A stretch of DNA of 36,648 nucleotides from Candidatus Woesearchaeota archaeon (GCA_964652735.1 CAZZCD010000003.1:1-36648), one strand, 5' to 3'. Positions 836 through 36,648 are shown, numbered from the stretch's first letter. Numbers and translations are program-made. Notes: a model not told the origin generated them from the letters alone.

Positions 836-3800
836 TTACTTATTAACCTCTTCAACGAGCTTTTTTTCTGCAGTTTTTTTCTCAGATTCTTTTTTTATCA
901 ATGGCCCAACTACCTTTACGAGAAGCCCTGGAAGTCCTGTTCCGATAGGTACTGGTTGATTTAATATGATATTTTCAATAACACTTGCAAGGTAATCTTT
1001 ATTTCCTTTTATAGTTGCATTTACAAACTGCTTTACAGGAGTTTCAAAGGTAGCTCTTGCAAGTATCGAAGATTTCTGCGCAATAATCCCTATTCTTGTC
1101 ACTCCCTTAACCTCTCCTGTATTAGTCATAGCATCTGCAATAAACTTTAAGTGTCTTTTATCAATATTTAATCCCTGGGTGTTTAAAACCTCTTGAATTT
1201 CATCAATGATAAATTGTCTCGCAGCTTCAATTCCAAACACACTTGCAACTTCATGAAGGTCATTTGAAATCAGCTTTTCAGAAGCAACTTCTTTCAATTC
1301 CAGTAATTTTTTCAAACTGGTTCCAAGAGTCATAATAATATAATCTCTGTCTTTTTTCACAATTAAAATTTGTTTTATTCCCTTGATTCCGGAAATTATA
1401 GTATTCTTGAGTTTTTCTTTAAGTTTATAAATTTCCTTAAAATCCATTTCAGAAGCATTAATGATTATTGAATCTGTCTTTTCTTTTGCATCAAATTTAA
1501 GGTCACGAAGTCTGTCAATAACTTTCTTTAGAGTTATGTGGCTTTGTCTTATTCCTTCTTTATCAATTTTTATTTCTATTTTTTTATTACTAAAATCAAG
1601 ATTAATTTCAGAAGCAATATCTTTTATTGTGACTTCTTTAATTTTTTCAGCAAAAACACGGGCATCTTTTTCATTGTTATATTCTTTTTTAAGATATATT
1701 TCCATTTTTGGAGAAGATGGTTTTTTCCTTGCATCAAAAATTTCTATAAGTCTTGGCAATCCCTGGGTAATCTGCATTTCAGAAACACCTGCGAAGTGGA
1801 AAGTTCTTAACACCATTTGTGTAGATGGTTCTCCAAAAGACTGAGCAGTAATTACCCCTATCGCCTCCCCTGGCTCTAATTTTCCATTAATATGAAGTCT
1901 TGAAACATCTATGCCGTCATCCCCATATATAAACTGAATAATATTATTATTGCTGTCTCTTATTGTCCCATCATATTCTTCTCTTAAATCCTGAAGAGCA
2001 TTTGCAAGTCTTCTGTAAAGATATCCTGACTTAGGAGTTCTTAATGCAGTGTCCATAAGGGATGCTCTTCCTGTTATAGCTCCAAAGAAAAATTCATCAG
2101 GTCTCAGTCCTTTTATGAAAGGGCTTCTTATGAATCCTTTTGCTTTTGGAGATAAGTCTCCTTCTTTGAAAAATGAAAGTGTTCTGTTGCTATAACCGAT
2201 ATCCACTCTTCTTCCTTCAAGATCCTGCTGTCCAACACAGCAAGCCATCTGTGTTATGTGTGTGATTCCTCCCCCTCCACCAGAGCGAATCATATGTGTA
2301 ACAGGATTTTCCTCTGGAAATTCTTGTTTGACAATTTTTCCTATTTTTGTTCTTATTTCATTTAATACTTTCAAGATTTTAATCTCTCTTGATTCCTCTT
2401 TTGTCTTACCCCGGATTATTTCAAGTGTACCCTGATTATAAGAATTAATTATCTCTGTGGTTTTTTCCTCTGCTTTTTTAATTATTTCTTCTGACATTTC
2501 AAAAACTTTTTCTTCTACATCAAAGTCTCCAAGAGAAATAGTGATTCCTTTTTCTGTAAGATAGTTTTTCCCAAGATTAAATGCTTTCTTAATTGTTTCA
2601 AAGGCAACTGTTCTTCCAAATTGTTTATCAATTTCTTTAATTAAGACACCATCTTCATCACCAAAAAGATCTTTATCTATGATTCCTTTAAGTATTTCTC
2701 CGTCTTGGATTTTTATATTTGAATTTGAAAAATTAATTTTTGGGAGTATTTTTGAAAAGATTTCCGTCCCAAGAACTGTTTTCTTTGAAAACTGGTGATT
2801 GATTCCTGCTCTATAAAGAATCTGGTTTGCCTCTTCATTTGAAAATTCTCCAAGCCCAAGGAGATATCCTCCTGTGATGGCATCATTTATACATCCAACC
2901 CAATTTGTGTTATTTTTAGGAGAAAAAAGATTTTTTTTAACTTCAAGAAGTACTTTTGCTTCTGCTTTTGCTTCCTCTGTCTGAAGACTGTGAATATTCA
3001 TTTCATCACCATCAAAGTCAGCGTTATAAGGAGCTGCAACAGCAGGATGCAATCTAAATGTTCTTCCAGGAAGAACCTTTACATAATGAGCCATCAGACT
3101 GCCCTTATGAAGACTTGGATGCCTGTTAAATAACACAATATCTCCTTTTTCAAGATGCCTCTCTACTATATATCCTGGAATAAGCTCGCTGATTATTTCC
3201 TCTTTAAGCTCTTCTGTTATTTTTTTTCTTTTTCCGTCAGGCCTTATAATATAATTTGCTCCTGGATATTCAGCACCTCTTTTTATAAGTTTTTTTATCT
3301 TTTCAATATTTAAATCATTAACAGTTTCTGCAACAGTAACAACCTTGGCAATTTCATAAGGAATTCCAACCTCATTAATTTCTATTGAAGGATCAGGAGA
3401 AATAACTGTTCTTCCAGAATAATTCACTCTTTTTCCTGCAAGGTTTTTTCTGATTCTCCCTTCTTTACCCTTGATTCTTTCTGTAATTGTTTTTAATGGC
3501 TGTCCACTTCTATGTCTTGCAGGCGGAATTCTTGCTACAGTATTGTCAAAAAAAGTTGTAATATGGAATTGTAACAGATCCCATAAATCTTCAATAATAA
3601 CCTCTGGAGCTCCTGCATTTAAATTCTCCCACAATCTTTGGTTTGCTCTTATAATGTCAGAAAGTTTATGGGTTAAATCATCCTCACTCCTTTCTCCACT
3701 CTCTAAAATAATGCTTGGTCTTACAGTTACAGGAGGAACTAAAAACATAGTTAAAACAGCCCATTCAGGCCTGAAATTTTTCGCGTCCATACCTATTTTT

Positions 3801-4324
3801 TCAAGTTCTTCATCAAGAATATTCACAAGCATTTCCCTTATTTCTATAGGAAAAATTCTTATTTTTCCTTTGTAAAATGTTGTTGGCTTATCAAGTTTTA
3901 TTTTTTCCTGAGCAGAATTACAATGAGGACATTTTTTTGAATCTTTTGCTTTCTTAACTCTTTGGCTTGGAGTGTTTTTCTCAAGATTTTTATCAGCGAG
4001 CATTAATTTTCCACAGTTTTGGCAGAAAGACCTCAAGCAAAGTTCAATCACAGGAACATACTTCAAATGAATCACAGGTCTTGCAATGTCAATGCTTCCA
4101 GGATGTCCAAGACATTCTTTTAGCCTTCCCCCACATGTTCTGCATCTTACTCCAGGATCAATTGCTCCAAGTCTTAAATCCATCAAGCCCCCATCAACAG
4201 GATAACCATCGATATCATAAAGTTCTGGAGTTACAATCTTTGCAACAGACATCTTTTTTATCTTCTCAGGGCTAAGCAAAGAAAATATCATTTCACTTAT
4301 CTTTTTTCTTATTGGTTTAGCCAT
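836..4324 (-). CDS. rpoA: DNA-directed RNA polymerase largest subunit, fused Rpo1N(A')+Rpo1C(A'')
   Basis: NADFDGD catalytic motif, N-terminal Zn motif CRTC..CLGHPG; A' end (YGDDG) runs straight into A'' (PGEAIG..AQSFGEPSTQM..TFHFAG); start set at MAKPIRKK (4324) to avoid overlap with upstream ORF. Confidence 0.97.
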   Translation of the reverse strand: MAKPIRKKISEMIFSLLSPEKIKKMSVAKIVTPELYDIDGYPVDGGLMDLRLGAIDPGVRCRTCGGRLKECLGHPGSIDIARPVIHLKYVPVIELCLRSFCQNCGKLMLADKNLEKNTPSQRVKKAKDSKKCPHCNSAQEKIKLDKPTTFYKGKIRIFPIEIREMLVNILDEELEKIGMDAKNFRPEWAVLTMFLVPPVTVRPSIILESGERSEDDLTHKLSDIIRANQRLWENLNAGAPEVIIEDLWDLLQFHITTFFDNTVARIPPARHRSGQPLKTITERIKGKEGRIRKNLAGKRVNYSGRTVISPDPSIEINEVGIPYEIAKVVTVAETVNDLNIEKIKKLIKRGAEYPGANYIIRPDGKRKKITEELKEEIISELIPGYIVERHLEKGDIVLFNRHPSLHKGSLMAHYVKVLPGRTFRLHPAVAAPYNADFDGDEMNIHSLQTEEAKAEAKVLLEVKKNLFSPKNNTNWVGCINDAITGGYLLGLGEFSNEEANQILYRAGINHQFSKKTVLGTEIFSKILPKINFSNSNIKIQDGEILKGIIDKDLFGDEDGVLIKEIDKQFGRTVAFETIKKAFNLGKNYLTEKGITISLGDFDVEEKVFEMSEEIIKKAEEKTTEIINSYNQGTLEIIRGKTKEESREIKILKVLNEIRTKIGKIVKQEFPEENPVTHMIRSGGGGGITHITQMACCVGQQDLEGRRVDIGYSNRTLSFFKEGDLSPKAKGFIRSPFIKGLRPDEFFFGAITGRASLMDTALRTPKSGYLYRRLANALQDLREEYDGTIRDSNNNIIQFIYGDDGIDVSRLHINGKLEPGEAIGVITAQSFGEPSTQMVLRTFHFAGVSEMQITQGLPRLIEIFDARKKPSSPKMEIYLKKEYNNEKDARVFAEKIKEVTIKDIASEINLDFSNKKIEIKIDKEGIRQSHITLKKVIDRLRDLKFDAKEKTDSIIINASEMDFKEIYKLKEKLKNTIISGIKGIKQILIVKKDRDYIIMTLGTSLKKLLELKEVASEKLISNDLHEVASVFGIEAARQFIIDEIQEVLNTQGLNIDKRHLKFIADAMTNTGEVKGVTRIGIIAQKSSILARATFETPVKQFVNATIKGNKDYLASVIENIILNQPVPIGTGLPGLLVKVVGPLIKKESEKKTAEKKLVEEVNK

Positions 4325-4325
4325 T

Positions 4326-4721
4326 TTATTTTTTAGGTTTAGGCATATTGAAGAATTTAAATAATTCCCCATTAAATTTTAATCTATCTTTACTAGAACA
4401 AATAATAGTCAAAAAGATTTTTTTATCTCCTAAAAACAAATCTGCTCTAATATTTACATTATACCCTTGAATTTCATCATGTTCATCTTTAATTTTTTCA
4501 AAATTTATTTTTCTATATTCTAAATTATCTTTTTTATCTTCATATCCTTCTTCAAGGCATAACTTTATTTTCAAAACTTTTGATAAAATCTCTGAAAGTT
4601 TTTCTATAACTTTTTGTTTTTTGTCAAAAATGTAATAATTAAAATCTCTCTCGTTTCCAATAGAGTGAAGTATAAATTTTTTCTTACTGGTTTTTCTTTT
4701 TATAGTTTTTTTGTTTTTCAT
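4326..4721 (-). CDS. hypothetical basic protein between rpoB and rpoA
   Basis: 131-aa ORF separated by 1 nt from each RNAP gene; no recognisable motif. Confidence 0.75.
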   Translation of the reverse strand: MKNKKTIKRKTSKKKFILHSIGNERDFNYYIFDKKQKVIEKLSEILSKVLKIKLCLEEGYEDKKDNLEYRKINFEKIKDEHDEIQGYNVNIRADLFLGDKKIFLTIICSSKDRLKFNGELFKFFNMPKPKK

Positions 4722-12030: not shown

Positions 12031-12750
12031 CTATCTTATTTCGCTTTGCCGAAGATATTTAATTGCTTCCCTCTGTGCTTTTTCCATCAGGTCTTTAGAA
12101 GTTTCAGGAAATTCTTCAAGTCGAGGATTGATTAATTCTCCTTGTCTTGGAACAAAGGGTTGTAGATAATATCTATGGGTGCTGTCTCCTGTAACTTCAA
12201 CAATCCATTTTGCAATGGCTTCAACTTCTTCAGGAGTCATAAAATCAATCTCTTCTCTTATAATAGGAGCAATAGTTGTCCTGAACTCATAAGCTGGAAA
12301 TTCTTTAACTATTTGAAAACTTTCTTCAATATTTTTAAGATTTATTCCAGAAATTCCTGTTACTGCTTTATATAATTCCTTAGGTGCTTTAACATCCATT
12401 GCAACATAATCAATTAAATTTTCTTCACGCAGTTTCTTTAATACTTCTGGATTGCTACCGTTTGTATCAAGTTTGACTGCTAATCCTCTCTCTTTTAATT
12501 TTCTTACAAAATCCACTAATCTAGGTTCAAGAGTCGGCTCTCCTCCACAAAGAACCACCCCTTCAATCCACTTCTTTCTTGAGTCTAGATAATCAAAAAA
12601 CTCTTTTTCATCTCTCTCCTCCCTACTTGTTAAAAGGGGCTTTGCATGGCAGGCAGGACATCTATAATTACAATCTGGGAAAAAAACCACTGCAGAAATC
12701 TTTCCAGGATAATCTATAAATGATTCTTTTAAAAATTCCCCGATTTTCAT
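12031..12750 (-). CDS. nrdG: anaerobic ribonucleotide reductase activating enzyme (radical SAM)
   Basis: CNYRCPACH, GGEPT, KLDTNGS, AMDVKA, EFRTT; near nrdD. Confidence 0.92.
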   Translation of the reverse strand: MKIGEFLKESFIDYPGKISAVVFFPDCNYRCPACHAKPLLTSREERDEKEFFDYLDSRKKWIEGVVLCGGEPTLEPRLVDFVRKLKERGLAVKLDTNGSNPEVLKKLREENLIDYVAMDVKAPKELYKAVTGISGINLKNIEESFQIVKEFPAYEFRTTIAPIIREEIDFMTPEEVEAIAKWIVEVTGDSTHRYYLQPFVPRQGELINPRLEEFPETSKDLMEKAQREAIKYLRQSEIR

Positions 12751-12751
12751 T

Positions 12752-13018
12752 TCAGTTGAATTGGTGATTTAATATTTTTTCTCCTTGAGCAATCACCTCA
12801 ATTTTAGACTTACTTCTTCTTATCAAGACAGGAAGAACAATTCGTTGATCATCTCTTTCTATATCTTCTTTTACATCTCTTAAAATAGCAGAAAAAGACT
12901 TTCTTCCAGCACTTGCTTCTAATCTAGATTCAGAACAAACTATCTTTGCTTCTCTTAGATAAGCTTTTACTTTTTCACATATTCCACAATTTGGCAGAGT
13001 GTATAATTCATAGTTCAT
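12752..13018 (-). CDS. glutaredoxin/NrdH-like redoxin
   Basis: LYTLPNCGICEKVK..L and LPVL; 4-nt overlap with nrdD. Confidence 0.75.
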   Translation of the reverse strand: MNYELYTLPNCGICEKVKAYLREAKIVCSESRLEASAGRKSFSAILRDVKEDIERDDQRIVLPVLIRRSKSKIEVIAQGEKILNHQFN

Positions 13019-15093
13019 GTTTGAAATCTTTCCCTATGGGCAAATTCTTCTTTTTTTCCTTTGTTCCAAGTGTTAATCGGTCGCAGATAACCAACAATTC
13101 TATCATAAATTTCTGTTTCTTCTCCACAATCTAGACAAGCTTCAACTTTCCCTGAAAGATAACCATGATTAGGGCAAACACTAAAAACAGGAGTAATACT
13201 AAAATAAGGGAGCTTGGTTTCTGTAGCAATCTTTCTAACAAGATTTTTTGCAGTTTTTCCATCAATCCTTTCTCCTAAATATGTGTGGAATATTGTTCCT
13301 CCTGTATAAAGAGTTTGAAGAGATTCTTGATGTTCTAATGCAGAGAATAAATCTTTTTTAGAATCAACAGGCAATTGGGTTGAATTTGTTAAAAACGGTT
13401 CATCACTTCCAGAAGTATGAATATGTGGATAAAGTTGTTTATCTAATTTTGCAAATCTATAAGAAGTTGATTCTGCAGGAGTTGCTTCTAAATTATAAAG
13501 ATTACTTGTTTCTTTTTGATACTTTAATGCCCTATTTCTCATAAAATTAAGAACCTTTTCTGCAAAAGCTTTTCCTTCAAGGGTAGAAATATCTTTTTTT
13601 AAGAAATTTACACATGCTTCATTCATTCCACAAAGCCCAATTGTGGAAAAATGATTTTCAAAATGTCCTAAATAAGATTTTGTATAAGGCACAAGACCTT
13701 CTTCAAGAGTTTTTTTAATCACTGCTCTTTTAATTTCTAATGATTCAGAAGCCACATCCATCCATTCCCCAAGTTTCTCTAAAAATTCCTTTTCATTGTT
13801 AGCTTCATACCCAATCCTATTCATGTTTATTGTAACAACACCAATACTTCCTGTAGAATCCCCAGGTCCCCACATATTTCCAGGCCTATTCATTAATTCT
13901 GTTTGATCTAAATTAAGTCTACAACACATTGCCCTAATTGATTTAGGATCTAATCCAGATCCAATATAATTTTGAAAATAAGGAATTCCATACTTTCCTG
14001 TAACTTCAAATAATAAATCTGAAACTTCAGAATCCCAAGCAAAATCTTTAGTTAAATTATATGTTGGAATTGGAAATGTGAAAATTCTTCCGTCTTTATC
14101 TCCGTGCATCATGGTCTTTAAAAAACCCAAATTAATCATATCCATTTCTTTTTGATATTCTCCATATGTTGAATCTAATTCTTCTTCACCAATAATTGCT
14201 TTTTTATCTTTCAAATCTTTTGGAACAGTTAAATCAAAAGTTAAATTTGAAAAAGGAGCTTGCCAACCCCAACGAGAAGCGACATTTAAGCTATAAATAA
14301 GATTTTGCATACGTTGATCAACTTTTTTTTGATTAAGATTATCTTTTCTTACAAAAGGAGCTAAAAACGTATCTACAGAAGAAAATGCCTGGGCTCCTGC
14401 AAATTCTCCTTGCATACTTCCAATATAATTAACCATGTGAGGTATAATTGTATCTAGGTGCTTAGCAGGAGAGCTCTGAACCCGCTCACGAACCTTTCCA
14501 AAACCTTTTTTTATTAATTGTTCTAAAGAATGACCACAACAATAAGCAACAATAGGAAAATCCAAATCATGAATATGGATAGAACCATCTTCATGCAAAT
14601 TTTTTATTTCTTTATTATACATATCGTTTAATGCGTATAAATTAAGAATTTTTCCTGCAAGATTAGCATTTAAACCTTGGAAAGTTACTCCTCCTTGGTT
14701 TGCATTTTCAGAAGAACTTGGATCTTCTTTCTCAACAAATCTTTTAACAAGATTGTTAGAAAACTTAAGTATAGCTTGTTCAGAGCGGCCCATATCTCTG
14801 AATTTTTTATGGGCTTTTCGATAAACACTATATTTTTTTTGAGTTGAATTATAGCCAAGACCCCTCATAGTGTCTTCTACAATATTTTGTATTTGTTCAA
14901 CAGTTGGATGTGAAACATCACCAAACATTATTTTTAAGGTATTAACAACCATATTAGAGACTCCTTGAGATGCAGAAATAGGATCTCCTTCAAACAATTC
15001 ATCTGCTACAAAAGCTTTTTTAGCAGCCACCGTGATTTTTTCAGGAGTAAAATCTGCTATAGTTCCATCTCTTTTTGTAATTTGTTTAATCAT
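13015..15093 (-). CDS. nrdD: class III (anaerobic) ribonucleoside-triphosphate reductase with ATP-cone
   Basis: ITKRDG ATP-cone, IHIHDL, AMCCRL, LEATPAES, CPNH..CLDC Zn site, RIVGYLRP glycyl-radical motif. Confidence 0.96.
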   Translation of the reverse strand: MIKQITKRDGTIADFTPEKITVAAKKAFVADELFEGDPISASQGVSNMVVNTLKIMFGDVSHPTVEQIQNIVEDTMRGLGYNSTQKKYSVYRKAHKKFRDMGRSEQAILKFSNNLVKRFVEKEDPSSSENANQGGVTFQGLNANLAGKILNLYALNDMYNKEIKNLHEDGSIHIHDLDFPIVAYCCGHSLEQLIKKGFGKVRERVQSSPAKHLDTIIPHMVNYIGSMQGEFAGAQAFSSVDTFLAPFVRKDNLNQKKVDQRMQNLIYSLNVASRWGWQAPFSNLTFDLTVPKDLKDKKAIIGEEELDSTYGEYQKEMDMINLGFLKTMMHGDKDGRIFTFPIPTYNLTKDFAWDSEVSDLLFEVTGKYGIPYFQNYIGSGLDPKSIRAMCCRLNLDQTELMNRPGNMWGPGDSTGSIGVVTINMNRIGYEANNEKEFLEKLGEWMDVASESLEIKRAVIKKTLEEGLVPYTKSYLGHFENHFSTIGLCGMNEACVNFLKKDISTLEGKAFAEKVLNFMRNRALKYQKETSNLYNLEATPAESTSYRFAKLDKQLYPHIHTSGSDEPFLTNSTQLPVDSKKDLFSALEHQESLQTLYTGGTIFHTYLGERIDGKTAKNLVRKIATETKLPYFSITPVFSVCPNHGYLSGKVEACLDCGEETEIYDRIVGYLRPINTWNKGKKEEFAHRERFQT

Positions 15094-15107
15094 TTTAATT
15101 CTTTCAT

Positions 15108-15542
15108 TTATAACTCTCTTAATTCTTTTTTAAAATCTTTAATGTCTTGAAAATCTCTGTAAACAGAAGCAAATCTTATGTATGCAACATTATCCAGTTT
15201 TTTTATTTTTTTCATGATTAACTCTCCAATAGTATAACTCTTTAGCTCTTTCTTCCCTTTTTTCCTCAGTTGTTCTTCTATTTCATTTATCATCTTTTCA
15301 ATCTTTTCCTTAGAGATAGGTCTTTTTTCAAAAGCTTTTTCAATTCCTGTTTCAAGTTTTTCCCTTGAAAACTTTTCACGTCTACCATCTTTTTTTATTA
15401 CAAAAAACTCACTCCGACTTATTTTTTCATAAGTGGTGAATCTCTTCTTACATTTTAGACATTCTCTTCGCCTCCTTATTCCCTCAGGAGATGGTCTTTT
15501 ATCAGTTACTTTAGATGCACCAGTACAATACGGACATTCCAT
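15108..15542 (-). CDS. nrdR: transcriptional repressor NrdR
   Basis: MECPYC..IRRRRECLKCKKRFTTYE Zn ribbon, ATP-cone, VAYIRFASVYRDF; true start at 15542. Confidence 0.95.
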   Translation of the reverse strand: MECPYCTGASKVTDKRPSPEGIRRRRECLKCKKRFTTYEKISRSEFFVIKKDGRREKFSREKLETGIEKAFEKRPISKEKIEKMINEIEEQLRKKGKKELKSYTIGELIMKKIKKLDNVAYIRFASVYRDFQDIKDFKKELREL

Positions 15543-15545
15543 TTT

Positions 15546-15592
15546 ATACCATATATAGTATGTAAAACCTGTAGTATCCCAACAGATTGTAG
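15546..15592 (-). promoter_or_regulatory. tandem NrdR boxes
   Basis: Minus strand ATACTATATATGGTAT (15546-15561) and CTACAATCTGTTGGGA (15577-15592) resemble the acaCwAtATaTwGtgt consensus and are 31 bp apart; TATA (TTTAAATA) near 15620. Confidence 0.8.
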
Positions 15593-15721
15593 AACCCAAA
15601 ATAAAGACTTATTAAGTATTTAAAGATTTATGTCTACTAAAATATAATAACAGAACACACAATCCAAAACAACTTTTATAAACTATTTTTTCTTACATAT
15701 TAAATATAAAAAGAGGTCGAA

Positions 15722-23993: not shown

Positions 23994-24662
23994 ATGAAAT
24001 TAGGTGTTTTATTTTCAGGAGGGAAAGATTCTTGCATGTCTACCTGGTTTGCAAAGAAGAAAGGAAATGAATTAACATGTTTGATAACCCTTGAATCTGA
24101 AAATCCAGATAGTTATATGTTTCATACACCTTCTATTTCTAAAACAAAACTTCAAGCAAAAGTTATGAAATTGCCGTTGATTGTTAAAAAAACAAAAGGA
24201 GTTAAAGAAGAAGAACTTAAGGATCTTGAATCTGCAATTAAAGCTGCAATTGATAAATATGAAATTGAAGGTATTGTTACAGGTGCATTGCATTCAGAGT
24301 ACCAAAAATCAAGAATAGAAGATATATGTAATAAGCTTGGACTAAAATGTCTTAATCCTTTATGGCACAAGAACGAATTCAAATATTTAAATGAATTAAT
24401 CAAGAACAATTTTGAAGTTATTATCACAGGTATTGCAGCGCATCCTTTAGATGCGTCTTGGCTTGGACGAAGAATTGATAAGAAGTTTGTAAAAGATATG
24501 AAGCATCTTAATAAAAAATATCAAATTCATCCTGCAGGAGAAGGGGGAGAATTTGAAACCTTTGTGATAAACTGCCCCTTATTTGAAAGAGGATTAAAAG
24601 TAACAGGTGCAAACTTCACAGGGGAAAAACATTCCTGGAAGATGGAGATTGAGGTGGGATGA
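23994..24662 (+). CDS. dph6: diphthine--ammonia ligase
   Basis: LFSGGKDS, SYMFH, GALHSEYQ..R, PLW, GEGGEFET. Confidence 0.92.
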   Translation: MKLGVLFSGGKDSCMSTWFAKKKGNELTCLITLESENPDSYMFHTPSISKTKLQAKVMKLPLIVKKTKGVKEEELKDLESAIKAAIDKYEIEGIVTGALHSEYQKSRIEDICNKLGLKCLNPLWHKNEFKYLNELIKNNFEVIITGIAAHPLDASWLGRRIDKKFVKDMKHLNKKYQIHPAGEGGEFETFVINCPLFERGLKVTGANFTGEKHSWKMEIEVG

Positions 24663-25492
24663 TGAAATCGCTTGGAAAAATATCTTTAGTAACTTTATTA
24701 CTGTCTGTTTTAGTTTCTCCAATTAAAGACGCCGAAGAAAATTTTATTCAACAAATAGTTATTAATGATGAAGTCCAAAAAACATCAAAAATTAATCATG
24801 ATATTTCTTCACTTATAAATTATCTCGAAGAAAAAGGTTTTCAAATAAATGATTTACTACAAGACCCAAGATTTGAAATCTATAAGGGGATAAGAAATAA
24901 GTTTATATATTCTGCAGAAAAAAAATCCCAAACCCTTGAAGAATATAAAGAAGCATTAGGATATAAATATATAAAAAACAACATATCTGATTTTATTAAC
25001 AACAATATTAATCAATTAATAATAGCAGAGGAAGCTTACAGGATTTCTAAATATATTACTTCAGCTATAATTGGAATTGAGTCTGATTTTGGTAAAAAGA
25101 AAGGAGACTTTAATCCATTTAATGCTTATGTTTCAATGTATGCAGATAATTACAAAAAGGAATTTGCAAGCACACAACTTGAAGAGTTGTTAATTTTCTG
25201 TGAAAAGAATGAAATTGATGTTTTAAGTTTAAAATCAAGTTATGCAGGAGCTATTTCATATGCACAATTCCTTCCTTACTCATTAAATAGATGGTTTATA
25301 GGAAATGATTTATATGATATGGATAACAATATTCTTTCAGCTGCTAGTTATCTTTCATACTTTAAAAAAATAACAGGAAGCCTTGAAGAAGCTATTTCTG
25401 AATATAATCCAAGCGAGCTTTTTGTAAAAACTGTTTTAGATCTTGCAAAAGACGCAGAAAAATTATACCCCTGCCGAGAATTGAACTACTAA
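24659..25492 (+). CDS. secreted lytic murein transglycosylase, MltB/SLT_2 family
   Basis: N-terminal signal-like segment; AIIGIESDFG catalytic Glu; SSYAGAISYAQFLP, D..S.ASYL, YN.S..V..V. Confidence 0.85.
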   Translation: MMKSLGKISLVTLLLSVLVSPIKDAEENFIQQIVINDEVQKTSKINHDISSLINYLEEKGFQINDLLQDPRFEIYKGIRNKFIYSAEKKSQTLEEYKEALGYKYIKNNISDFINNNINQLIIAEEAYRISKYITSAIIGIESDFGKKKGDFNPFNAYVSMYADNYKKEFASTQLEELLIFCEKNEIDVLSLKSSYAGAISYAQFLPYSLNRWFIGNDLYDMDNNILSAASYLSYFKKITGSLEEAISEYNPSELFVKTVLDLAKDAEKLYPCRELNY

Positions 25493-32386: not shown

Positions 32387-33838
32387 ATGACCGCAACAAT
32401 TGAACAACTCATAGGGAAAATTCATCCAAAACTTTATGCGGACAAAGGAGCAGAACTACTAAAAAAATACGGCTCTAGTGAAGGAATTCCTGCAGAAGAA
32501 GTTGAAGAAAAACAAATATTAGAGCACTCTCTTATCTATGATTCTAGCTCAGAGACCTTAGAACCTGTTTATTTTTTTATTTTGGATTTAATGAATGACC
32601 TTGGTTTAAAGACAGAAAAATTAATTGATAATTTTACTTCATCTCCTGGCTCAGGACATTTTGCAGAGTTAGGACAGAGAGCAACAGTAATGCAGCAGCA
32701 GGGAACAAAAATTCTTTTTGACGTAAACAATGTTTTGAAAAGCGTGCTTAATATTATTTATGACTTAAAAGAACACAAAATAAGACTTCAGCTGTATGAT
32801 GATATAAAAACAGATAAAAAAGAATCAGCTCTTCTCGCATTAAAACAAGTGTGGATGGACAAGGTTGATATAAACAAGGGAAACTCAAGCATAAAAGCCA
32901 TGGCTATTGGGCAGGCTGGATTTCAAACTCTTATAGATGCTTTTCTCTTTGTTAAAGATGTTGATGATGTTAATAAAGTTGATTTAAACGACAGAGTTAA
33001 AAGAATTTTAAGAGCAAGGATACTTGAGTTTAATACTTGGCTTGAGCATTCTGAGAAAGAGTTAAGAAAAAGATACGAGCTTGAAAAAACTTATTTAAAG
33101 ACCCAGGTTAATTCCTTAAAACTTTATTCAAGATGGGCAAGACCTTATCTTAAAGCAGCACAGGAGTTAGAGATGAAGGAAAGAGGAAGAGAGCCTGCCT
33201 TGGTTAAAGCATTTAATACAATTATTCTTGAATTAACTTTATTAGGAAAAAAGAAAATCGATTTAAGAGAAGAAGCACTTTCAGGGAATCTTCCAAAGGA
33301 TTTTGAAAAAATTAAAACAAAGGATTATTACAGCTGTGTTCTTGTTAATTTTAAATTCCGTGGAATTCCGCAGAGAGTAAGTCAACAAGCACATTATGCT
33401 TTTGGAGGAAGAGCTGAAATTTCCTTTAAACCCTATGTGTTGAATGAAGATGAAATACAAAAACTTAATGAAGAACTTGAAGCTTCTGACGTTAATGATG
33501 TTCTCAGGTTGATAGAAGGTGCAACATCTGAAAGTCTTGAGCAGCTTCAGGAAGAGATTAACTTTTTTCTTGAAGAAAAAGATGAAAAAGAAGAACAAGA
33601 AAAACAAAAAGATTCTTCAAATCCTTTCAAAGCACTTATTGGAGGATATGGGGGAGAACCAACAGAGCCAAAAACAAAAGTTGCTGTTTCTCCTACTGCT
33701 AAGAAAGTTATAATGAGGCCAGAAACTTATGCTGAAAAAAATTATGTAAGAACTCTTGGAGAAGAAAAAGCAAAAAAACTTGCATTTAATCTTTTTGATT
33801 TTTACAAAAAAGCTCACGGAATGCCCAGTTATACTTGA
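32387..33838 (+). CDS. hypothetical helical protein (483 aa)
   Basis: Long ORF with normal composition; function not recognised. Confidence 0.85.
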   Translation: MTATIEQLIGKIHPKLYADKGAELLKKYGSSEGIPAEEVEEKQILEHSLIYDSSSETLEPVYFFILDLMNDLGLKTEKLIDNFTSSPGSGHFAELGQRATVMQQQGTKILFDVNNVLKSVLNIIYDLKEHKIRLQLYDDIKTDKKESALLALKQVWMDKVDINKGNSSIKAMAIGQAGFQTLIDAFLFVKDVDDVNKVDLNDRVKRILRARILEFNTWLEHSEKELRKRYELEKTYLKTQVNSLKLYSRWARPYLKAAQELEMKERGREPALVKAFNTIILELTLLGKKKIDLREEALSGNLPKDFEKIKTKDYYSCVLVNFKFRGIPQRVSQQAHYAFGGRAEISFKPYVLNEDEIQKLNEELEASDVNDVLRLIEGATSESLEQLQEEINFFLEEKDEKEEQEKQKDSSNPFKALIGGYGGEPTEPKTKVAVSPTAKKVIMRPETYAEKNYVRTLGEEKAKKLAFNLFDFYKKAHGMPSYT

Positions 33839-33903
33839 TTTTTGTCATAATTATAGAATATAAAAGCTTATAAAGTACTTATTTTACAGCTCTTTAAGAT
33901 AAA

Positions 33904-34353
33904 ATGGTAAAAAGATCCACAGAAGAATTGGAAAAAATGTTAACAGAAACAAGTGAAAAAAAGATAGCAATAGATGAGGAAGCACTCTCTTTTACTTCTT
34001 TGTCTCTAGGAAGTAGGAATCCTCCTCAAATTGAAGTTTTAACACATTATATGAGAGATATTATCCAATTATATGAAAATGCGAAAAGTGTTATAAAAGA
34101 AGATTATGAAAAAAGAAGAAAGTTATTAGATAAAGAGCTTATTTATTCTGAGTTTTCAGTTAGAACAGGCAATTGTTTAAAAATTAATGGCATAACAACA
34201 GTAAGAGATTTAGTTAGTAATATAAAAAGTGAAGAAGATTTTTTCAAATATAAAAATGTAGGTAGAAATAGTTTTGCTGAAATAAAAGATTTTTTAGATA
34301 AAAACGATTTACATTTGGGAATGGATATTAACGAATATTTAGGACAGGAATAA
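33904..34353 (+). CDS. protein with bacterial RNA polymerase alpha C-terminal domain
   Basis: EFSVRTGNCLKINGITTVRDLV..SEEDFFKYKNVGRNSFAEIKDFL..DLHLGM matches the alpha-CTD pattern LSVRxxNCL...I..v.DL...E.dll...N.G.kS..EI...L...GM. Confidence 0.88.
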   Translation: MVKRSTEELEKMLTETSEKKIAIDEEALSFTSLSLGSRNPPQIEVLTHYMRDIIQLYENAKSVIKEDYEKRRKLLDKELIYSEFSVRTGNCLKINGITTVRDLVSNIKSEEDFFKYKNVGRNSFAEIKDFLDKNDLHLGMDINEYLGQE

Positions 34354-34393
34354 TATCCAATAATTTTATATATTTCTTTAATCTAACAAATTC

Positions 34394-34972
34394 ATGCCCA
34401 AGAAAAAATCAAAAGAATCTAAAGAAGAATTTGAGGAGTTGGATAAATTATTTGATAAAGATGATGAAGTTAAGAAATCTGAACTTGAAGAAGATGTGGA
34501 ATTAAATCTAGAAGATTTACAATTTCATCAGTTTATGCAGTCTTCTGAACCTTTAGAGGACAAAGCTCCTGTTCTTGAAAGAATTGCTGGTTCTCAGCCA
34601 GGACCAGTTTTTGTCGGAGGAATACCACAAACAGCTATTAATGTTCCAGGAGAAGAAGAAAAAACAAACGATTTCAAATATGTTCCTGGGGGTGGGGGAA
34701 ATGATGAGCCAAAATATATTGCTTCTGATTCAAGAGTTTCCTCAGAACTAACTCCTGTAGATTTAATGAAAGTAGGAAGAAGACCGGCTGAACCAGTTCC
34801 TCAAGTGAATCAAGAAACATTTTCCATGCACTCAGAACCACATTTACCGACCGTATCAACACCTGAAAGAGAATTCAGGGCTGAAAGAATTGACATAGAG
34901 AAGGCAGGAAGAAGAGATGTTTTTGAAGGAGAAGATGTTAAATACAAACCAAAACTTCCTAAAAACCATTAA
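34394..34972 (+). CDS. hypothetical acidic/Pro-rich, probably disordered protein
   Basis: 192 aa with own TATA. Confidence 0.75.
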   Translation: MPKKKSKESKEEFEELDKLFDKDDEVKKSELEEDVELNLEDLQFHQFMQSSEPLEDKAPVLERIAGSQPGPVFVGGIPQTAINVPGEEEKTNDFKYVPGGGGNDEPKYIASDSRVSSELTPVDLMKVGRRPAEPVPQVNQETFSMHSEPHLPTVSTPEREFRAERIDIEKAGRRDVFEGEDVKYKPKLPKNH

Positions 34973-35044: not shown

Positions 35045-36648
35045 ATGGCTGAATATAAAATAGGTGGTTATAAAATCCCAGATATTTATCAAGGAGGATA
35101 TTCAAGTCTTGATCCATCAAATAATTACATAACTGCAGGAGCTCTGGGTACGACAACAGATCCCAGAACAGCAAATATTTTACAAGAGGTTTCAACAAAA
35201 CTTTCTTCAGGAGTTAAGCAGATTGAAATTTCTGCTGTTTCTCCAGAGGTTTTTGATTCTATGCCAAAGCAGCATCTTAAAGAGGTTAATAGACTTTCAA
35301 AACTGACAGGAATAGATGTGTCTTTGCATGCACCTGTTGTAGATGTTTCTGGTATAGATCCTCAAAGTGGATTCAGTGAATCTGAGAGAGAACTTTCAGA
35401 GAACAAAGTTACAGATGCTCTTTTAAGAGCAAAAGAATTAAATCCAGATGGAAATATTCCTGTTACTTTTCATTCTGCACAAGGAATTCCTGGCTCACAA
35501 CTTCTTCCGCCTTCTGAGAGAAAAGAAGAAAAAGAATACAAAAGACTTATTGTTATTAACAAAGAAACAGGAAAACTCGCTCCTTTAGAGCAAGATATAC
35601 AATATATTCCTGGCACAGAAAAACTAGAACCAGAAAAACTTTCTCCAGAACAAAGAATTGGGACGCTGAACAAGACAGAATGGAGCAACAGAATTTCCCA
35701 ACTTATTTTTAACAAAGAAAGAGCTGATGAAGTTTTGGAAAAAAGCAGGCCTTTTATAGAGCATTTAATTGAGGAAATTAAAACAGGAAAATTCAAAAAA
35801 GAAGATTTTAAATTTTCTCCTGATTTACAAAGCGCTTATAGACACTATGAAAATGCACAAACTTATCTCCATGATCTTCACACACAAGTCTCTTCTCTTT
35901 TCAGTAGAGCTTATGAATTTGCAGATGAACATCAAAAGGAAATTTTAAAAGCATATTCAGAAAACTATGGAAAAAATATTAAAAAATCTGCTATACCAAA
36001 CCCTTATTCAAAAGACAAAGAAGCAATTCCAAATCCTTTTGCTCAAGCAAAAGCAATGCATGACTTACTTCATAATCTGGGAAGTCCAAAAGTTATTCCA
36101 GAAATGTATGTTCCTGTTGAAGATTTTGCTGTTGAAAAATCTGCCAAGACTTTTGGAAATGCAGCTTTCAATTCTTATAAAAAATTCAAAGACAAAGCAC
36201 CTACACTTGTTATTGAAAACCCTCCTGCAGGTTTTGCTTTAAGCACAGGAGAAGATATTAAGAAAATGGTTGAAGAATCAAGGAAACAGTTTATGGAAAA
36301 AGCTGTTTTAGAGGGAATGTCAAAGTCCCAGGCAAAAAAAGAAGCAGAAAAAATTATTGGTGCAACATGGGATCTTGGACATATTAATATGCTAAGAAAA
36401 TATGGATACAGCGAAGAGGAAATTGTTAAAGAAACAGAAAAAGTTGCTCCTTATGTAAAACATGTTCATCTTTCAGATAATTTTGGTTTTGAGCACACAG
36501 AGCTTCCAATGGGGATGGGGAATGTTCCTCTTAAAAAAATGATGGAAAAGCTCGGAAAAAAAGGAGTTGAATCAAAAAAAATTATTGAAGCAGAACACTG
36601 GTGGCAGCATTTTAAAACCCCTCCTTTTCAAGAGGTTTTAGAGGCAGT
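35045..36648 (+). CDS. xylose isomerase/AP-endonuclease-2-like TIM barrel protein, runs off the window
   Basis: Not in track; MAEYKIGG... with IE, SLHAP, VTFHS, LVIEN, TWDLGH, HVHLSDNFG, GMGNVP, IIEA motifs and a long helical insertion. Confidence 0.85.
   Translation, partial: MAEYKIGGYKIPDIYQGGYSSLDPSNNYITAGALGTTTDPRTANILQEVSTKLSSGVKQIEISAVSPEVFDSMPKQHLKEVNRLSKLTGIDVSLHAPVVDVSGIDPQSGFSESERELSENKVTDALLRAKELNPDGNIPVTFHSAQGIPGSQLLPPSERKEEKEYKRLIVINKETGKLAPLEQDIQYIPGTEKLEPEKLSPEQRIGTLNKTEWSNRISQLIFNKERADEVLEKSRPFIEHLIEEIKTGKFKKEDFKFSPDLQSAYRHYENAQTYLHDLHTQVSSLFSRAYEFADEHQKEILKAYSENYGKNIKKSAIPNPYSKDKEAIPNPFAQAKAMHDLLHNLGSPKVIPEMYVPVEDFAVEKSAKTFGNAAFNSYKKFKDKAPTLVIENPPAGFALSTGEDIKKMVEESRKQFMEKAVLEGMSKSQAKKEAEKIIGATWDLGHINMLRKYGYSEEEIVKETEKVAPYVKHVHLSDNFGFEHTELPMGMGNVPLKKMMEKLGKKGVESKKIIEAEHWWQHFKTPPFQEVLEA

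Follow-up and report, generated by a model that had tools for sequence, protein, structure and literature searches.

A stand-alone alpha C-terminal domain of bacterial RNA polymerase in an archaeal chromosome

We analysed a stretch of 36,648 nucleotides (hereafter the window) from Candidatus Woesearchaeota archaeon (GCA_964652735.1, CAZZCD010000003.1:1-36648), in which an open reading frame (ORF) on the plus strand encodes a free-standing C-terminal domain of the bacterial RNA polymerase alpha subunit (alpha-CTD). The ORF spans positions 33904..34353, has an ATG start and a TAA stop, and encodes a protein of 149 amino acids (aa). The alpha-CTD proper (PF03118) occupies residues 66-132 (34099..34299, +), where profile, PDB, AlphaFold2 (AF2) and Foldseek matches coincide. 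Two predicted helices precede it in the AF2 model, one at residues 3-36 (33910..34011, +), which is acidic with an isoelectric point (pI) of 4.9 and has a predicted local distance difference test (pLDDT) score of 63-79, and one at residues 40-75 (34021..34128, +) with a pLDDT of 81-95. The domain is followed by a C-terminal tail, DKNDLHLGMDINEYLGQE (34300..34350, +), that resembles the extreme end of many bacterial RpoA proteins. A TATA-like box identified by motif class, CTTATAAA, is placed at -37 relative to the ATG (33867..33874, +) and is preceded by AAAAG. Promoter and single ORF form an inserted cassette of about 520 bp (33839..34357, +; right boundary within about 5 nt). The cassette lies between two conserved genes of the same strand, a 483-aa gene native to the genus (32387..33838, +) and a 192-aa gene (34394..34972, +), neither of which has a match in Pfam, NCBIfam or PHROGs. 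The 192-aa gene has its own TATA-like box 29 nt before its ATG (34365..34372, +), which is conserved in relatives.

The C-terminal part of the ORF product is a true bacterial alpha-CTD. The Pfam profile RNA_pol_A_CTD (PF03118) matched residues 66-132 over model positions 2-66 of 67 (E-value 9.4e-14, 51.3 bits against a gathering cut-off of 23.8) and was the sole Pfam family found for the protein at E<=1. A six-frame scan of the genome gave the alpha-CTD 53.3 bits to the same profile. No generic helix-hairpin-helix (HhH) family (HHH_5, HHH_2 and others) was reported at E<=1 in Pfam. The HhH domains of archaeal proteins (HhH2 tail, XPF/Hef-type nuclease, L002) do cross-match PF03118, but at 19-20 bits and over model positions 32-67 only, unlike the 149-aa protein, which covers positions 2-66 at 51 bits and matches no HHH family. 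A preliminary description, made from the sequence alone, had taken the last 70 or so residues for an alpha-CTD and had named a better match to a generic HhH family as the outcome that would speak against this. The profile search bears out the original assignment, with the alpha-CTD as the best match, and the PDB sequences matched at E<=0.01, 39 in all, belong without exception to alpha chains of RNA polymerase. The best-scoring of these chains come from what we take to be Firmicutes-type organisms.

The NCBIfam models of RpoA aligned residues ~45-145 to the last 100 positions of alpha, with a best score of 70.2 bits against a cut-off of 302, far under the whole-protein cut-offs (TIGR02027, PRK05182). 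Searches with Pfam found no match to PF01193 (RNA_pol_L), PF01000 (RNA_pol_A_bac) or PF04545 (Sigma70_r4) in the protein. Because the N-terminal domain of alpha (alpha-NTD) is absent and the scores stay below the equivalog cut-offs, the protein belongs to the alpha-CTD domain family and is not an RpoA. It shares with bacterial RpoA the family, the fold, most DNA-contact residues, the LL linker segment before the domain and the C-terminal tail. It differs in having no alpha-NTD, and hence no assembly into RNA polymerase, in its archaeal host with a Rpo3/Rpo11-type enzyme, and in two features of the domain described below, the replacement of K298 by N and a 2-residue loop insertion.

In bacteria the alpha-CTD is the textbook device that reads UP elements and receives signals from activators. 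We built an AF2 model of the 149-aa protein from a 20-row alignment; it is a predicted and not an experimental structure. Its mean pLDDT was 86.6, with values of 95-97 across the C-terminal domain (residues 71-140), which is predicted to be compact and to contain four helices (residues 86-94, 100-106, 110-113 and 121-133). Every match that Foldseek listed in the PDB was to an alpha chain of RNA polymerase. Where the target was an isolated alpha-CTD chain, the root-mean-square deviation was 1.0-1.4 A over 65-69 columns and the template modelling score (target) 0.74-0.92. These targets include complexes: by their titles, 9zum contains AT-rich DNA, 1lb2 and 3n4m contain CAP with DNA, and 3n97 contains sigma region 4 with a UP element. 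A homodimer prediction (two copies, alignment A2) scored 0.02 against a mark of 0.42, which gives no verdict either way.

We aligned the protein with the Escherichia coli rpoA reference (from NC_000913.3) to compare contact residues. Residues R265, N268, C269, N294, G296, S299 and E302 of E. coli RpoA are kept as R87, N90, C91, N118, G120, S123 and E126, and K297 corresponds to R121. The SVR..N and N.G..S motifs that had been recognised at the outset lie at S85-V86-R87..N90 and N118-V119-G120..S123. The "265" DNA-binding determinant of E. coli alpha comprises R265, N268, C269, G296, K298 and S299. Five of these six residues are retained (R87, N90, C91, G120 and S123), and K298 is replaced by N122. 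Among the known contacts with sigma and activators, the equivalents of E261, E286 and G315 are kept and three positions are changed (D259Y, V287E, R317D). The loop at residues 105-109 has a 2-residue insertion relative to E. coli alpha.

The tail of the protein (...LHLGMDINEYLGQE) is like the ends of full-length RpoA proteins, e.g., P0073 (...GLHLGMDLNELVGD) and P0106 (...GLYFGMDIGELEQE), and the pattern [LF]GMD[IV]N[EK]Y retrieves mostly rpoA loci of Bacteroidota, Ignavibacteriota, WOR-3 and allied groups. The opposite end is different. The N-terminus had been described as helical and unrelated to alpha, and our results agree, with two predicted helices and no similarity of residues 1-72 to the alpha-NTD. 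Residues 1-65 and 1-77 alone had no NCBIfam match at E<=10, residues 1-75 had no usable match in the ESM Atlas, the hhalign probability of the N-terminal part against an alpha-NTD alignment was 0.1, and tblastn found no match to it at E<=10 in 43 bacterial rpoA loci. Residues 44-65 do align without gaps to the last alpha-NTD helix and the linker (in MAFFT, phmmer and multiple alignments), and the gap-free colinearity with E. coli alpha starts at about residue 219, which is not significant by itself. We considered that the N-terminus might be a remnant of the alpha-NTD, the ORF then being the 3' third of rpoA. This is unsupported, as the NCBIfam, hhalign and tblastn searches were all empty. Helix 1 has no detectable relatives. 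Helix 2 carries the block QLYENAKSV at residues 55-63, and its C-terminal end merges into the LL segment resembling the alpha linker. The protein is hydrophilic, with no hydrophobic segment or signal peptide (maximal Kyte-Doolittle mean over 19 residues of 0.38), in line with the initial remark that no secretion signal is visible.

We scanned a library of 1.84 billion proteins and obtained 2109 matches at E<=0.001. Among the best 150 of these 2109, only P0004 showed likeness N-terminal of the linker. This protein of 116 aa is 48% identical overall to the 149-aa protein, is identical in the block QLYENAKSV (9/9 residues) and keeps the fold-critical and DNA-contact residues of the alpha-CTD. It is the sole member of its cluster and comes from a short, 944-bp metagenome contig. 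A word-index search at near lengths returned the 149-aa protein alone. We found no orthologue on scanning 400 further genomes of the family, whose best match (42 bits) covers the CTD only, no relative in pattern scans of IMG/VR viral contigs and JGI metagenome contigs, and no PHROGs phage family at E<=0.01. The intact ORF and the residues conserved in a protein with 48% identity point to a gene that is probably maintained and not decaying.

The upstream region and the composition of the gene are like those of its host. Motifs of the class [CT]TT[AT]TA[AT]A start at -45..-25 in 12 of the 36 genes of the window against ~3% expected per gene, for a motif defined post hoc. Because it was defined after viewing these same upstream regions, the motif is a consistency check and not a proof of a promoter, whose function is probable from the sequence. 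An archaeal TATA box had been reported before the ORF, and the octamer CTTATAAA at -37 corresponds to it. The GC content of the ORF is 0.264, and 0.153 at third codon positions (GC3); the other genes of the window have a GC of 0.265-0.364 and a GC3 of 0.157-0.298. The alpha-CTD gene thus has a host-like promoter and composition.

The contig was confirmed to be archaeal. The window encodes an Rpb1-type Rpo1 (1178 aa), Rpo2, Rpo7, a NusA-like KH protein, ribosomal protein S24e, diphthamide synthase and other housekeeping genes, and a 307-aa ORF elsewhere in the genome was identified by eye as TFB. The metagenome-derived assembly has 478 kb in 39 contigs, is 71% complete and has an even GC of ~0.30. 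The small genome and the gene content suggest that the host is a DPANN-type archaeon. In a genome-wide scan with PF04545, only the ORF read as TFB passed the cut-off, beside one sub-threshold frame of 164 aa. Hence no sigma-70 was detected in this 71%-complete genome by the PF04545 scan, the sub-threshold frame not having been inspected. A search of the same genome with a protein from the same order that fuses the alpha-CTD to sigma region 4 (L006, see below) matched the alpha-CTD part only and revealed no split sigma region 4 partner.

The genes around the ORF are native to the lineage. The 483-aa gene is present in 38 of the 42 genomes of the genus, with main matches at 66-83% identity. In the third gene of the block (>534 aa, 35045-36646), the C-terminal end matched a xylose-isomerase-like TIM-barrel model, and this was the gene's single match. 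The 483-aa, 192-aa and >534-aa genes form a block conserved across the genus and are lineage-specific genes. We used tblastn to examine the loci of 11 relatives. The 192-aa gene is downstream of the 483-aa gene in nine of them: the two genes abut (gaps of 17-83 nt) in five loci and have unrelated ORFs between them in four. Other genes follow the 483-aa gene in the remaining two (L017, L020). The alpha-CTD gene is absent from all 11 loci. In the four loci with intervening ORFs, the same spot contains a 70-aa ORF (L019), a pair of ORFs of 70 and 113 aa (L023), a 165-aa ORF (L026) or a 164-aa ORF (L027). The larger product of L023 has an HPFSDGNKR motif and is presumably Doc/Fic-like; the 165-aa ORF of L026 is presumably CYTH-like, as judged by eye. 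The gap between the 483-aa and 192-aa genes (33838/34394 in the window; L017-L027 in relatives) is a hotspot of accessory cargo in the genus.

The boundaries of the insertion are visible by comparison with relatives that have nothing at this spot. In L018 and L024, the stop of the 483-aa gene is followed by 36-38 nt containing the promoter of the next gene, and then by the ATG of that gene. This promoter region is TTTTATATATTTCTTTAA in L018 (36-nt gap), and L024 shares TTTTATATAT. In the window, the same neighbour promoter sequence is found directly after the stop of the alpha-CTD gene. We found no integrase, partner gene or flanking repeats around the insert, only short AT-rich matches of the kind expected by chance. 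Two Logan contigs together bridge both junctions with 0 differences, one of 839 bp (33500-34338) and one of 749 bp (33848-34596). They come from two runs of one sample, probably the source of the window, and represent an independent assembly but not an independent sample. In two other runs (X3, X5), relatives at 90-99% likeness cover the flanks and not the insert, save for one short piece in X5, and one X5 contig departs from the window sequence at 33843, just past the stop of the 483-aa gene. This pattern fits a variable spot, as a weak indication. A chimeric contig had been named as the other outcome that would undo the initial interpretation; with its syntenic native flanks, bridged junctions and intact neighbour promoter, the contig is not chimeric here.

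Acquisition by horizontal transfer and insertion is well supported, because the gene is a single-gene insert at a variable spot and has no orthologue in the 400 other genomes of the family. We infer the direction of this transfer, with the archaeon as the recipient. The preliminary description had proposed acquisition from bacteria or phage. The acquisition stands, and the donor could not be placed by the domain tree, by PHROGs or by the scan of viral contigs. We built the tree from 201 alpha-CTD rows and 85 columns with a quick method, and the query was in no supported clade. The archaeal copies were dispersed in the tree: their 7 rows needed 6 changes, which is no different from shuffles (mean 6.9). 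The nearest named rpoA loci, at 40-48% identity, are mostly from Bacteroidota, Ignavibacteriota, WOR-3, Marinimicrobia and allied groups, in a sample that was picked by the tail pattern and is biased accordingly. With a tree unsupported at the query and a biased sample of named loci, we claim no donor lineage.

Across this archaeal phylum the alpha-CTD turns up sparsely yet repeatedly, with several architectures, so that the uniqueness suggested at first was overstated. Of 301 genomes in the order, 10 had a PF03118 match over the cut-off; in the phylum sample, with G000 counted, the figure was 18 of 401. The architectures in the order are small one-domain proteins (L008-L013) and three fusions with Sigma70_r4. 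Among at least 36 congeners, only one other genome (G178) has the domain, in a different protein of 195 aa. The G178 protein (L010, 1111-1695, +) has a divergent alpha-CTD of 30.5 bits after an unrelated N-terminus. Its sequence points to a separate acquisition or to rapid divergence.

The three fusions from the same order are L003 (426 aa, 436-1713, +), L006 (429 aa, 433-1719, +) and L007 (>=337 aa, 2-1012, +). They have a Sigma70_r4 domain at 35.9-59.8 bits, and a C-terminal alpha-CTD at 55-84 bits, but lack sigma regions 2 and 3. Archaeal-type genes adjoin two of the three (L083, L084), namely FEN1, a family B polymerase and Trm5 in one case and TrmB in the other. Like the 149-aa protein, the fusions place a bacterial promoter-reading domain in an archaeal chromosome, with the alpha-CTD at the C-terminus. 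Unlike it, they have their own Sigma70_r4 helix-turn-helix and a long N-terminal region, and the alpha-CTDs do not group together in the tree. The 149-aa protein does not belong to this fusion group. The fusions may repay further study more than the stand-alone gene does.

The main text of an earlier study describes sigma-70-type genes of Woesearchaeota beside TBP, TFB and TFE, the authors having ruled out mis-binning (Castelle et al. 2021, PMC8204110), and the terms "alpha subunit" and "RNA polymerase" are absent from that main text. What was counted as "sigma-70" in Woesearchaeota may be such a fusion of two bacterial promoter-DNA readers. The woesearchaeotal sigma-70 factors of that study are, as described there, a precedent for the keeping of bacterial transcription parts by DPANN archaea. 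The polymerases of archaea and eukaryotes are described as having no alpha-CTD. In its available text, a 2026 review of alpha-like subunits (PMC13374769) treats the alpha-CTD for bacteria only and RpoD/RpoL for archaea. We found no paper on an archaeal alpha-CTD or on free-standing alpha-CTD proteins in the open full-text literature, a scope that leaves subscription journals and supplements outside.

The wider protein library suggests that the use of alpha-CTD outside RpoA is much broader than the textbook picture. It contains arrays of up to 11 alpha-CTD copies and fusions to TPR, T5orf172, PIN_2, ResIII helicase, Sigma70_r4 and HEPN-like domains. Examples outside RpoA are P0002, P0003, P0009, P0149 and P0016. 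Like the 149-aa protein, free-standing and multi-copy proteins such as P0121 (106 aa), P0138 (108 aa), P0007 (2 copies) and P0002 (11 copies) have the domain as a portable module outside RpoA, and some are also short and single-domain; they are of metagenomic origin. Their N-termini are unrelated to that of the 149-aa protein, which has helix 2 in common with P0004 only. The NCBIfam model PRK07758, a 95-residue "hypothetical protein", is a weak match to our protein (15.5 bits against a cut-off of 115).

Other genes of the window are of separate interest. A gene for an SLT_2/MltB-like lytic transglycosylase is found at 24659-25492 (+), with 89 bits in Pfam and 85 bits to TIGR02282, the latter below the cut-off. 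It begins inside the end of the diphthamide synthase gene. Rpo1 is encoded by one 1178-aa ORF (836-4372, -) with Rpb1 domains 1-5, i.e., with A' and A'' in one frame; these are usually two genes in archaea. At 13015-15599 (-), the gene for the anaerobic ribonucleotide reductase NrdD, with its activase at 12031-12750, adjoins a gene for a bacterial-type NrdR repressor. NrdR, with a Zn ribbon and an ATP-cone, is another bacterial-style regulator in the same archaeon.

We give an even chance to the reading that the 149-aa protein works in the cytoplasm as a small DNA-binding or adaptor protein, which would use R87, N90, G120 and S123 on the minor groove of AT-rich DNA and helix 2 as a second contact. 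We favour it because the fold and most of the contact surface are intact and because sister genomes join the domain to another bacterial promoter-DNA reader. In the mechanism that we propose, a cassette of ~520 bp with a host-type promoter and one ORF was inserted by horizontal transfer at an intergenic site of variable content in a DPANN-like archaeon with a small genome. Its product, presumably expressed, consists of the two N-terminal helices, the linker-proximal segment, a complete alpha-CTD and the alpha C-terminal tail. The host has no bacterial polymerase, and no sigma-70 was detected in its 71%-complete genome, so the domain cannot serve within an RNA polymerase as it does in bacteria. 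Instead, the alpha-CTD would act as a self-contained HhH module in the minor groove of AT-rich DNA, with R87 (E. coli R265) as the inserting arginine, which would make the protein a small accessory factor that binds DNA or regulates genes, and the helix-2 block QLYENAKSV would give a second contact, by self-association or with a host partner.

Several observations weigh against this proposal. The position of K298, a residue important in UP-element binding, is occupied by N122; in the alignment of 20 homologues K is kept in at least 90% of rows, and the orthologue P0004 keeps it too. The pI is acidic, at 4.9 for the domain and 5.25 for the whole protein. Both K298N and the acidic charge argue against strong DNA binding. 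The titles of the Foldseek matches also name the protein partners CAP, Spx, NusA and sigma region 4. Since the alpha-CTD is a protein-protein hub in bacteria too, DNA need not be its main ligand. A single orthologue is known, and helix 1 is absent from it, in a gene call that the 944-bp contig has perhaps shortened. Finally, there is no RNA run containing the stretch among 11 runs; the matches in these runs are to contigs and are uninformative on expression.

The DNA-binding or adaptor reading has to be weighed against others, of which a neutral passenger survives best, although we find it rather unlikely. On this account, the 3' end of an rpoA gene was captured recently, and the frame is open, perhaps transcribed, without function and due for loss. 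The presence of the gene in one genome only among the 401 family genomes scanned would fit, and so would a spot that has unrelated cargo or nothing in relatives, the replacement of K298 by N, and a tail and stop that mimic the end of RpoA after a gap-free alignment to E. coli alpha from ~residue 219, as in a gene fragment. Yet P0004, at 48% identity, keeps the core of the domain and an identical block of nine residues outside it, and a frame that has stayed open through so much divergence suggests that the gene persists under constraint. The host-type promoter motif, the host-like composition and residues 1-72, which have no detectable similarity to the alpha-NTD, also speak against it.

The accessory hotspot also raises the question of a gene from a conflict system or mobile element, with a role in defence, counter-defence or addiction, e.g., by binding foreign DNA or a foreign factor. 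The other cargo at the same spot in relatives, such as the L023 pair with its presumably Doc/Fic-like product, is compatible with this, as are the metagenomic fusions of alpha-CTD to T5orf172, PIN_2, ResIII helicase and HEPN-like domains. However, the protein belongs to no PHROGs family and has no relative among the viral contigs (the PADLOC library was not searched), and the insert came without integrase, partner gene or flanking repeats. We therefore hold this role to be unlikely.

A bolder version of the DNA-binding reading, in which the protein would act in trans as an alpha-CTD for the archaeal polymerase, is improbable in our view. The block QLYENAKSV would dock on RNA polymerase, TFB or TBP, and the domain would read AT-rich DNA upstream of the TFB-recognition element (BRE) and TATA box.

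More doubtful still is the suggestion of the preliminary description that the free alpha-CTD is a decoy or effector, titrating the activators, NusA or UP elements of a bacterial partner alongside the MltB-like enzyme. The identity of 40-48% to named rpoA loci, the conserved equivalents of E261, E286 and G315, and the SLT_2/MltB-like protein encoded in the same genome could be cited in its favour. But the SLT_2 gene is 8.4 kb away in another transcription unit and is itself sporadic, being present in four of the 42 genomes of the genus, and none of the three other carriers has PF03118 (in genomes 71-84% complete), so that the expected co-occurrence is not seen. The protein has neither a signal peptide nor a hydrophobic segment, no delivery system is seen in the window, and D259Y, V287E and R317D alter known activator or sigma contacts. 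The proposed link with MltB thus finds no support.

Finally, that bacterial DNA was misjoined to an archaeal contig during assembly or binning is highly unlikely: the assembly is a metagenome assembly of 39 contigs with 71% completeness, but the flanks are native and syntenic, the neighbour promoter continues after the insert, two other assemblies of the same sample bridge both junctions with 0 differences, and the composition is host-like.

An archaeal chromosome thus retains a standard bacterial domain in a gene of its own, a rare accessory insert that is today a well-documented oddity. An alpha-CTD with an intact predicted fold and a promoter of its own in such a chromosome means that the domain can be kept without its polymerase, and the fusions with sigma region 4 indicate the same. 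It adds to the mosaic of bacterial transcription parts known in DPANN archaea, as described in the main text of PMC8204110. If the protein does bind DNA, it would be a very small portable reader of AT tracts and a test case for transcription modules that cross the domain boundary. If it acted in trans with the archaeal polymerase, an archaeal promoter would gain a bacterial-style UP-element input and, together with the fusions of the sister genomes, this would mean that these archaea regulate genes in part through promoter-recognition heads taken from bacteria.

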